39,096 bases of DNA from a virus (Duplodnaviria > Heunggongvirae > Uroviricota > Caudoviricetes): the IMG/VR virus record IMGVR_UViG_2851971941_000002, one strand, 5' to 3'. The position numbers and the translations under genes were made by a program. Positions 23,155-23,481 of the stretch are shown here, in pieces. How positions within the stretch are numbered: the stretch's first letter is position 1; each line of letters opens with the position of its first letter. Under the pieces are notes generated by a model. That model was not told where the DNA came from. It saw only the letters and a program-made list of their open reading frames with translations, and did not search any database.

Positions 23155-23481
23155 TCAAGGACGTGACGGCGTAAAGATAAATTGTCTCTTCACTCCCTGA
23201 CAGGGGCGATTCTTTTCAAATCGCCATTTCGCCATGGCCTTCACCACTTCATCACGAAACAAATTATGAGGCTCTGAGCGGAGAAAAACGATCCGTGTCA
23301 CAGTCCCATCAGCACCAATATCGAACTTAACCTCAACCAGCCCCTTGATATAATTTGCTGCAGCATATTCCGGATATCGTGGATACACCGTCACTAATTG
23401 CCGGGGCTCATCAGCTTTTTGCTGCGAGCATCCCACTGCCAGGACAGATAACAGAAAAAGTAGTAAAAGGCGTCTTTTCAT
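23155..23481 (-). CDS. lipoprotein with a TonB C-terminal-like domain (108 aa)
   Basis: ATG at 23481 (MKRRLLLLFLLSVLAVGCSQQ, lipobox LAVGC); YPRYPEYAAANYIKGLVEVKFDIGADGTVTRIVFLRSEPHNLFRDEVVKAMAKWRFE aligns closely with E. coli TonB residues around 160-230 as recalled; the ORF-track start at 23535 is upstream of the lipoprotein signal. Confidence 0.55.
   Translation of the reverse strand: MKRRLLLLFLLSVLAVGCSQQKADEPRQLVTVYPRYPEYAAANYIKGLVEVKFDIGADGTVTRIVFLRSEPHNLFRDEVVKAMAKWRFEKNRPCQGVKRQFIFTPSRP

Follow-up and report, generated by a model that had tools for sequence, protein, structure and literature searches.

To what end does a lambda-like prophage carry a lipoprotein that consists of little more than a TonB C-terminal domain? 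The question is raised by one gene in the stretch of DNA analysed here (the window), the 39,096 nucleotides of IMG/VR record IMGVR_UViG_2851971941_000002, a virus of the Caudoviricetes. A first-pass annotation, made from the sequence alone, had described the product as a phage-carried lipoprotein of 108 residues made of the C-terminal domain of TonB; profile, sequence and fold comparison confirm that description. We hold it to be close to certain that the gene encodes an exported, functional TonB_C lipoprotein and is a prophage moron. How the product acts can be answered only more tentatively. It is plausible that it is an unpowered mimic of TonB which hinders TonB-dependent entry into the lysogen.

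A lipoprotein built on the TonB C-terminal domain

Is the domain truly that of TonB? The Pfam model TonB_C (PF03544) matches residues 33-99 with E=7.3e-13 and 49.2 bits, against a gathering score of 24.6, and the NCBIfam model TIGR01352 (tonB_Cterm) gives 47.4 bits against a cut-off of 27.1. In a phmmer comparison with the PDB, residues 23-103 align without a gap to residues 150-230 of E. coli TonB (E ~1e-14), and the identity is 40% over 80 residues. The motifs that the first-pass annotation had named are all present, as YPRYP, VEVKFD, DGTV and EVVKAMAKWRFE. The similarity is far beyond chance. Nor is it a discovery, since the labels in GenBank and RefSeq already give it: the window protein is 100% identical to CPT_21_73 of phage 21 (“TonB C-terminal domain protein”), to Perceval LF82_160 (“TonB fragment”), to RefSeq WP_000830178.1 (“TonB family protein”) and to the ev017 gene.

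The predicted fold agrees with the sequence. A model calculated with AlphaFold2 (AF2) on an 18-sequence alignment of the family has a mean predicted local distance difference test score (pLDDT) of 85, exceeding 94 for residues 31-100. It comprises a short strand (28-30), a helix (38-42), two strands (47-55 and 60-70), a second helix (76-83) and a final strand (94-103) that corresponds to β3 of TonB. Foldseek superimposes the model on 1U07, 2GSK_B and 2GRX_C with E values of 2e-8 to 9e-7, a root mean square deviation (rmsd) of 0.7-1.2 Å and target-normalised TM-scores of 0.87-0.92; for TonB as bound to BtuB (2GSK_B) and to FhuA (2GRX_C) the rmsd is 1.0-1.2 Å. The window protein thus shares with the C-terminal domain of E. 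coli TonB (1U07, 1XX3, 2GSK chain B, 2GRX chain C) the fold of a three-stranded sheet on two helices, the YP motif and the strand β3 that pairs with the TonB box. Downstream of β3 only five residues (TPSRP) remain, and TonB 231-239 is without a counterpart. In the free NMR structure of TonB, residues 231-239 form β4, which is displaced by the TonB box. If this role of β4 is right, the β3 edge of the window protein would be permanently open.

Which residues are kept? Work from the Postle laboratory identified Y163, F180, G186, F202, W213, Y215 and F230 as functionally important in the C-terminal part of TonB. With an offset of +127 between the numbering of the window protein and that of E. coli TonB, all seven are kept, as Y36, F53, G59, F75, W86, F88 and F103 respectively, and these positions are mostly invariant across the aligned family.

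Is the window protein, then, an energy transducer? It is not. It is a member of the TonB_C family but, as the first-pass annotation had stated, it has neither the transmembrane anchor nor the proline-rich spacer of TonB; a cleavable lipoprotein signal is found instead. Its N-terminus, MKRRLLLLFLLSVLAVGC followed by SQQ, satisfies a PROSITE-type lipobox rule applied as a regular expression ([LVI][ASTVI][GAS]C preceded by a basic n-region and a hydrophobic h-region, Asp being excluded at +2), as do those of 17 aligned relatives. Full-length TonB equivalog models (NCBIfam PRK10819) score the protein at 45-69 bits, far under their cut-offs of 265-448, and these matches are confined to the C-terminal part of the models, the last ~80 positions. 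Cys18 is the predicted acylated first residue, separated from the start of the domain by a linker of seven residues, SQQKADE. Since the residue at +2 is Ser19 and not Asp, the lipoprotein is predicted to be sorted to the outer membrane; in the aligned family this position is S, A, T, V or G, never Asp. In one respect the earlier description has to be corrected. It had taken the domain to be ‘free’ in the periplasm, whereas the lipobox and the Ser at +2 predict a lipid anchor in the outer membrane. That predicted anchor, the cleavable signal and the lack of coupling to ExbB/ExbD distinguish the window protein from E. coli TonB.

Lineage, expression and Fur boxes

How widespread is the gene? By blastn it is present in 1,616 of 5,426 complete E. 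coli genomes (~30%), among them the sequence type 131 (ST131) strains EC958 and JJ1887. Of these carriers 1,201 match at 99% identity or more, and 392 have an allele of ~73%. On the other hand, only 15 of 50,697 phage records contain the gene, and a search of the BFVD viral structures with the window protein gave no significant match. We conclude that the TonB_C fold is rare in phages, yet that this gene is very common in the prophages of E. coli.

Might the gene be a non-functional leftover of host tonB, acquired by illegitimate recombination? Database labels such as ‘TonB fragment’ and ‘partial tonB-like’ would imply as much, and the 40% identity to E. coli TonB could be read in the same way. 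Selection and phylogeny refute this origin, however, and we leave it next to no chance. Between three E. coli alleles 25-33% of residues differ, but length, lipobox and architecture are kept, and dN/dS, the ratio of non-synonymous to synonymous substitution rates, is 0.10-0.18 at dS values of 0.4-2.2 (Nei-Gojobori). The same three properties are kept across E. coli, Klebsiella, Salmonella, Serratia and other genera, and the gene has its own transcription, as described below. In a neighbour-joining tree of the domain, the TonB C-terminal domains of enterobacteria form their own clade, with a bootstrap value of 93, from which the window family is excluded; the phage and island lipoproteins group with a chromosomal copy from Gibbsiella. 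Because the tree puts the family outside the TonB clade, the label “TonB fragment” is misleading. A decaying fragment or pseudogene is ruled out by the low dN/dS, the kept architecture and the phylogeny. On the domain tree, the window family is a separate, older lineage of stand-alone exported TonB_C lipoproteins.

Relatives of the same kind are numerous. An exhaustive HMMER search of 1.84 billion representative sequences returned many other proteins with a single TonB_C domain, 105-133 aa long, with a signal peptide or lipobox and 35-49% identity. Their sources are Salmonella, Klebsiella, Gibbsiella, Rahnella, Erwinia/Pantoea, Raoultella, Shimwellia and Serratia, and the source records name them only “TonB family protein”. 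The nearer relatives (41-49% identity) carry the clade signature SEPxHLFD...KWR[FY]E..KP..G[MVL].K. These stand-alone proteins of the Enterobacterales have the layout of the window protein, that is, a signal peptide or lipobox, a short linker and one TonB_C domain.

Is the gene expressed in the lysogen? The RNA-seq data of Misson et al. 2023 for strain LF82 include the identical gene, LF82_160, at 8-fold above the prophage background. In their tables its log2 fpkm (fragments per kilobase per million) is 5.0-5.3 in condition B1 and 6.6 in B6, and 5.0-6.6 over all five conditions, over which the flanking Rz and terminase genes reach 2.3-3.7 and host tonB 4.2-7.2 (Misson et al. 2023). The abundance of the LF82_160 transcript is therefore about that of host tonB. 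From B1 to B6, fepA (6.9-7.0 and 3.2-3.4, respectively, in the same tables), entC and tonB drop by ~2.5-4 log2 units, a drop that LF82_160 does not follow. Bor is strongly condition-dependent in LF82, whereas the TonB_C gene is nearly constitutive. We conclude that transcription of the TonB_C gene in the lysogen does not depend on the late operon.

This transcription bears on the label that the family carries in PHROG. PHROG 1267, which is essentially the window family, matches the full length of the protein at E=5e-43 and is labelled ‘Rz-like spanin’, which would make the product an accessory of lysis. An outer-membrane lipoprotein encoded on the late-gene strand, right after the lysis cassette, could be taken for one. 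But the prophage already has a complete Rz/Rz1 pair. A u-spanin needs a C-terminal transmembrane segment, whereas the window protein is a folded TonB_C domain whose C-terminus, FIFTPSRP, is not hydrophobic. Moreover, the gene is transcribed in lysogens, in which the lysis genes are silent, and the copies in chromosomes and islands are without any lysis genes. A part in lysis is thus largely refuted, and very improbable; the label of PHROG 1267 is almost certainly wrong and bound to propagate into phage annotations.

How are the relatives controlled? Upstream regions were scored against the two established Fur consensus sequences, the 7-1-7 form TGATAATnATTATCA (out of 15) and the 19-mer GATAATGATAATCATTATC (out of 19). 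In most relatives a match lies 14-53 nt upstream of the stand-alone TonB_C gene. It is perfect in the Salmonella prophages (L106-L113, L013/L014; L114), where TGATAATTATTATCA scores 15/15 at 14 nt before the start. Clade P0059 (locus L009) has 14/15 at 15 nt, the K. aerogenes island (L004 7972-7986) 13/15 at 14 nt, Raoultella (L017 3966-3980) 13/15 at 20 nt, and the Klebsiella phages 11-13/15 and 12-14/19 at 18-23 nt. Of the core chromosomal copies, that of Gibbsiella (L010, start at 7001) scores 15/19 at 16-17 nt and that of Serratia grimesii (L019 3924-3942) 17/19 at ~45 nt. Sites of at least 13/15 number 12 across the 137 kb of representative loci, and six of these lie directly upstream of TonB_C lipoprotein genes. 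The positions of these predicted boxes tie the family to the physiology of iron starvation, the state in which TonB and its receptors are induced.

The window allele departs from most of its relatives in this respect. Over the first 100 nt upstream it scores no better than 8/15 and 10/19, the level of background, and over 300 nt no better than 10/15 and 11/19; a Fur box with three or fewer mismatches was found nowhere in the window. At the same place, allele 2 of E. coli has the palindrome AGAATAAG-A-CTTATTCT, which at 13/19 is weakly Fur-like. The window allele has lost its Fur box and appears to be constitutive, and its background score fits the expression in LF82 independently of the Fur regulon. 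As far as we could find, neither the Fur link nor the separate clade has been described.

One further Fur-like match in the window (13/15, 15/19) adjoins cosQ as placed in the phage 21 record (table 1). It is more likely an AT-rich cos or packaging element, similar near-matches being found near cos and terminase in the Salmonella-type prophage L114. The unannotated open reading frame (ORF) that follows it on the plus strand has a signal-peptide-like internal start and a Cys-rich tail, and matches no family.

How the domain might act

If the gene is independently transcribed prophage cargo and its product an outer-membrane-anchored periplasmic lipoprotein, what would the product do there? After Lol sorting the domain would hang on a tether of ~8-10 residues from the inner leaflet of the outer membrane, at the height at which TonB-dependent transporters have their TonB boxes. 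Its β3 strand could then bind TonB-box strands by β-augmentation, as TonB does, be they those of the transporters or those of group B colicins threading through them. With no anchor and no coupling to ExbB/ExbD, the bound domain would deliver no energy and would compete with TonB. The lysogen would be expected to gain partial protection from phages and bacteriocins that depend on TonB, and to pay for it with a modest loss of iron uptake. Circumstantial support for such a decoy comes from the seven kept residues, the fold of receptor-bound TonB, the tonB-like transcript level and the Fur boxes of the relatives.

There are partial precedents. A TonB domain made in vivo in the periplasm reportedly inhibits transport through FecA and FhuA (Howard, Herrmann, Stratilo & Braun 2001, J Bacteriol 183:5885). 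Such laboratory fragments are, like the window protein, exported without the anchor; they are soluble, over-expressed pieces of E. coli TonB, whereas the window protein is natural, diverged, lipid-anchored and transcribed at about the level of tonB. Phage lipoproteins directed at a transporter are also known. Llp of T5 and Cor of phi80, N15 and HK022 are likewise small, phage-encoded and located at the inner leaflet of the outer membrane; their target is a TonB-dependent transporter, FhuA, which they inactivate from its periplasmic face, and Cor is expressed from the prophage. The TonB_C fold and the sequence of the window protein are unrelated to these, in keeping with the BFVD search. Further, Llp is specific for FhuA and acts allosterically on its plug and loops, whereas a mimic of TonB would be expected at the TonB box, and hence at many transporters.

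Several observations weigh against a decoy of this kind. The TonB residues implicated in contacts with the TonB box and the plug are replaced: the Q160 region, RNQPQ in TonB, is TVYPR in the window protein and variable within the family; R166 has become an invariant Tyr39; and in place of V226, position 99 is invariably Lys/Arg. Those relatives that lie beside core genes on chromosomes and have Fur boxes suggest a host or housekeeping role in iron physiology, in which an inhibitor of iron uptake would be counter-productive. Carriage by ~30% of complete E. coli genomes, including ST131 reference strains, and the high prevalence in siderophore-dependent pathogens make a strong block of TonB or of iron uptake unlikely. 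The J protein of the prophage has a C-terminus of the Perceval/long-tailed Stx-phage type, less than 60% identical to the other types; no TonB-dependent receptor is known as the target of its receptor-binding domain, so that self-exclusion is not indicated. A PADLOC search gave no match for the window protein. Literature searches returned no functional study of, or experiment on, the protein, which they found mentioned only once, as ‘TonB fragment’ among the morons tabulated by Misson et al. 2023. Taking both sides together, we consider the decoy plausible but put its chance somewhat short of even.

If the domain does not bind the receptors, might it bind the Ton machine itself? The residues conserved in the family are those of the aromatic cluster, which according to the Postle laboratory mediates TonB homodimers and TonB-ExbD contacts, while the receptor-contact residues (the Q160 region and R166) are not conserved. 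Once TonB has reached the outer membrane, the domain might then form a heterodimer with its C-terminal domain, or else with that part of ExbD which lies in the periplasm, and so hold TonB in an unproductive complex. The predicted phenotype, reduced TonB-dependent uptake and entry, is that of the decoy; the target differs. TonB is far scarcer than its receptors. With a transcript at about the tonB level, TonB would be stoichiometrically easier to titrate than they are. However, a tether of ~8-10 residues at the outer membrane leaves ExbD, near the inner membrane, out of reach, and the hydrophilic face of the amphipathic helix, R204, N208 and R212 in TonB, is D77, K81 and K85 here and variable in the family. 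We regard the Ton machine as a decidedly unlikely target.

Could the protein instead assist the uptake of iron? Fur boxes occur in most relatives, including the core chromosomal copies in Serratia and Gibbsiella, and Fur-repressed genes generally serve iron acquisition. They would suit a positive or regulatory accessory of iron starvation, for example an outer-membrane TonB-box binder by which ligand-loaded transporters are stabilised, primed or buffered. In prophages its gene would be a fitness or virulence moron, as sitABCD is in Perceval, and both the high prevalence in pathogenic lineages and the neighbouring host-interaction morons (Bor/Iss here, an Ivy-like protein in L114) are in line with this. 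Yet an unenergised TonB domain has no known way to promote transport. The sole experimental precedent for a soluble periplasmic TonB domain is the reported inhibition. The window allele, moreover, no longer has the Fur box, and its expression is not that of the Fur regulon. An accessory role is in our judgement unlikely, if worth keeping in view.

The neighbourhood of the gene would also accommodate a general envelope or virulence moron with no binding to TonB boxes at all, acting for example through an association with peptidoglycan or the outer membrane that affects serum resistance or the stability of the envelope, like Bor/Iss. Lysogens express the gene, its slot beside bor/iss is a known site of morons, and peptidoglycan binding by the C-terminal domain of TonB has been proposed. 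Bor/Iss and Lom, the classical morons of lambda, are likewise envelope cargo expressed in lysogens, and Bor/Iss is itself an outer-membrane lipoprotein; neither, however, is related to the window protein in sequence or in fold, and Bor lies on the opposite strand. The Fur boxes of the relatives point specifically to iron and Ton physiology, the functional residues of TonB are conserved, and there is no evidence of surface exposure. We allow this explanation a slim chance.

The decoy can also be stated for the family as a whole. Enterobacteria and their prophages would then share outer-membrane-anchored, mostly Fur-controlled, unpowered mimics that occupy the TonB boxes of receptors or of incoming colicins and confer broad superinfection exclusion or bacteriocin tolerance, with the window allele a derepressed, constitutive form. 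In this general form we hold it to be doubtful.

The prophage slot, its cassette and their meaning

Where does the gene reside? The window is a lambda-like prophage in which the TonB_C gene lies between Bor/Iss with Rz/Rz1 on one side and cos, Nu1 and terminase on the other (table 1). In every prophage copy examined (phage 21, JLK-2012, another HK97-type E. coli prophage, a Klebsiella phage, Salmonella prophages and a Serratia prophage) the gene follows the spanins and precedes cos or the small terminase subunit, on four phage backbones.

Other members of the family are found elsewhere. The K. aerogenes member P0048 (L004-L006) is in an integrase-bearing island with no recognisable prophage, an island that also encodes PerC, an ATP-grasp protein and a ShlB-type two-partner secretion transporter. 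The core chromosomal copies lie next to ahpC in Gibbsiella (L010) and next to dsbB-nhaB-fadR in Serratia grimesii (L019). In K. michiganensis/grimontii (L015) an exported TonB_C protein of 125 aa (500-877) is encoded downstream of der, and directly after it (936-1328) comes a 130-aa lipoprotein that matches Pfam TolA. This chromosomal pair of Ton and Tol C-terminal domains suggests paired decoys or modulators of both import pathways. In L114, the TonB_C gene is followed (3449-3871) by that of a secreted 140-aa protein with the loop CKPHNC, by which we take it to be Ivy-like (inhibitor of vertebrate lysozyme). On that assignment it is another envelope-protection moron in the same slot.

How did the gene come to be on different backbones? 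The window allele and the 72%-identical allele 2 of Stx1a phages and JLK-2012 have in common a module of 610 bp, and homology ends on both sides of it. Since the homology between the two main E. coli alleles is limited to this module, the gene moves as a cassette, and the module is indeed found on unrelated phage backbones.

What does the cassette contain besides the gene? Within otherwise diverged sequence an island, ATTGTyAGAATAAGAC, is conserved 19-32 nt before the ATG. It contains the -10-like TGTyAGAAT, which by consensus makes TGTCAGAAT a candidate promoter of the moron. In allele 2 the corresponding TGTTAGAAT overlaps the palindrome mentioned above, which there is perfect; in the window allele a deletion of 13 nt has removed the right half of it, and the left half only remains. 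Further upstream, ~160-200 nt from the gene, the module includes a nested hairpin whose stems are kept between the alleles while the loop differs. As no T-tract follows, it is unlike a classical terminator. The hairpin downstream of the stop codon is a possible terminator of the moron transcript. A generic scan for promoters and terminators called no site on the strand of the gene, this hairpin included. The 45-aa ORF upstream of the gene, although annotated in phage 21, is probably no gene: frame-breaking indels interrupt it in allele 2, and it has no match in Pfam or PHROG.

Table 1. Positions in the window of the TonB_C lipoprotein gene, its flanking elements and other features of the prophage.
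Feature	Position	Strand	Remarks
TonB_C lipoprotein, coding sequence	23155-23481	minus	108 aa; 108 codons + stop; ATG at 23481
AGGA ribosome-binding site	23488-23491	minus	6 nt before ATG; same site annotated in phage 21 record
Signal peptide MKRRLLLLFLLSVLAVGC, codons 1-18	23428-23481	minus	lipobox AVGC, by pattern; kept in 18/18 aligned members
TonB_C domain, codons 26-103	23173-23406	minus	equivalent to E. coli TonB 153-230; phmmer, AF2, Foldseek
Mobile module, gene + ~300 bp upstream	23172-23781	minus	610 bp; blastn, alignment A3
Extended -10-like motif TGTCAGAAT	23501-23509	minus	consensus match only; reads TGTTAGAAT in allele 2
Nested hairpin, CACCGGG...CCCGGTG around CCGCG...CGCGG	23639-23683	minus	dG -26.5 kcal/mol; z = -3.2
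GC-rich 9-bp hairpin, then T-rich stretch	23039-23063	minus	92 nt after stop; z = -2.9
45-aa ORF	23499-23636	minus	CPT_21_72 in phage 21
Lom	2798-3397	minus	
J	3467-6880	minus	
Terminase large subunit	19757-21682	minus	
Nu1	21657-22202	minus	
cosQ	22415-22421		from phage 21 record
Fur-like match	22422-22441		
ORF after Fur-like match	22471-22791	plus	unannotated
60-aa ORF	22766-22948	minus	PHROG 3744
59-aa ORF	22853-23032	plus	PHROG 4843
Bor/Iss	23962-24255	plus	
Rz	24287-24748	minus	
Rz1, inside Rz	24346-24528	minus	
R (endolysin)	24745-25221	minus	
S (holin)	25208-25525	minus	
Q	25835-26524	minus	
alpha/beta hydrolase	28373-29416	plus	BD-FAE/Abhydrolase_3; nin-region cargo
Inverse autotransporter	29453-33361	minus	1302 aa; IAT_beta + Big_1/Invasin_D3 repeats; nin-region cargo

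The remainder of the prophage carries cargo of its own. The nin region, from the replication genes to Q, holds two cargo genes, for an alpha/beta hydrolase and for an inverse autotransporter of 1302 aa; the latter is likely an adhesin moron, and in the related prophage of strain 4/1-1 it is longer, at 1421 aa. Between the TonB_C gene and Nu1 two small ORFs overlap on opposite strands. Each matches a PHROG family of its own, without known function, and one or even both of these families are probably artefacts of annotation. The minus-strand ORF is annotated in RefSeq and in the record of phage 21. The small ORFs beside the tail-fibre gene matched no Pfam family, and in PHROG matched families without known function. 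Rfam and tRNA scans of the window found nothing.

What does the gene mean for the biology of E. coli and its prophages? Even if the proposed mechanism is wrong, there remains a moron family that is conserved, expressed and widespread, and the Fur boxes of the relatives link it to iron physiology. If the mechanism is right, a phage employs its copy of a domain from the host to act against the host's own machine, and prophages have spread this mimic to ~30% of E. coli, including ST131 and Shiga toxin-producing (STEC) lineages. If the mimicry holds, it would add a novel form to receptor-directed superinfection exclusion. Many phages (T1, phi80, H8 and others) enter through TonB-dependent transporters, as do group B colicins and microcins, and siderophore-conjugated antibiotics. 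If the gene dampens TonB coupling, it would bear on host range in phage therapy, on how bacteria in the gut compete by means of bacteriocins, and on their susceptibility to Trojan-horse antibiotics.

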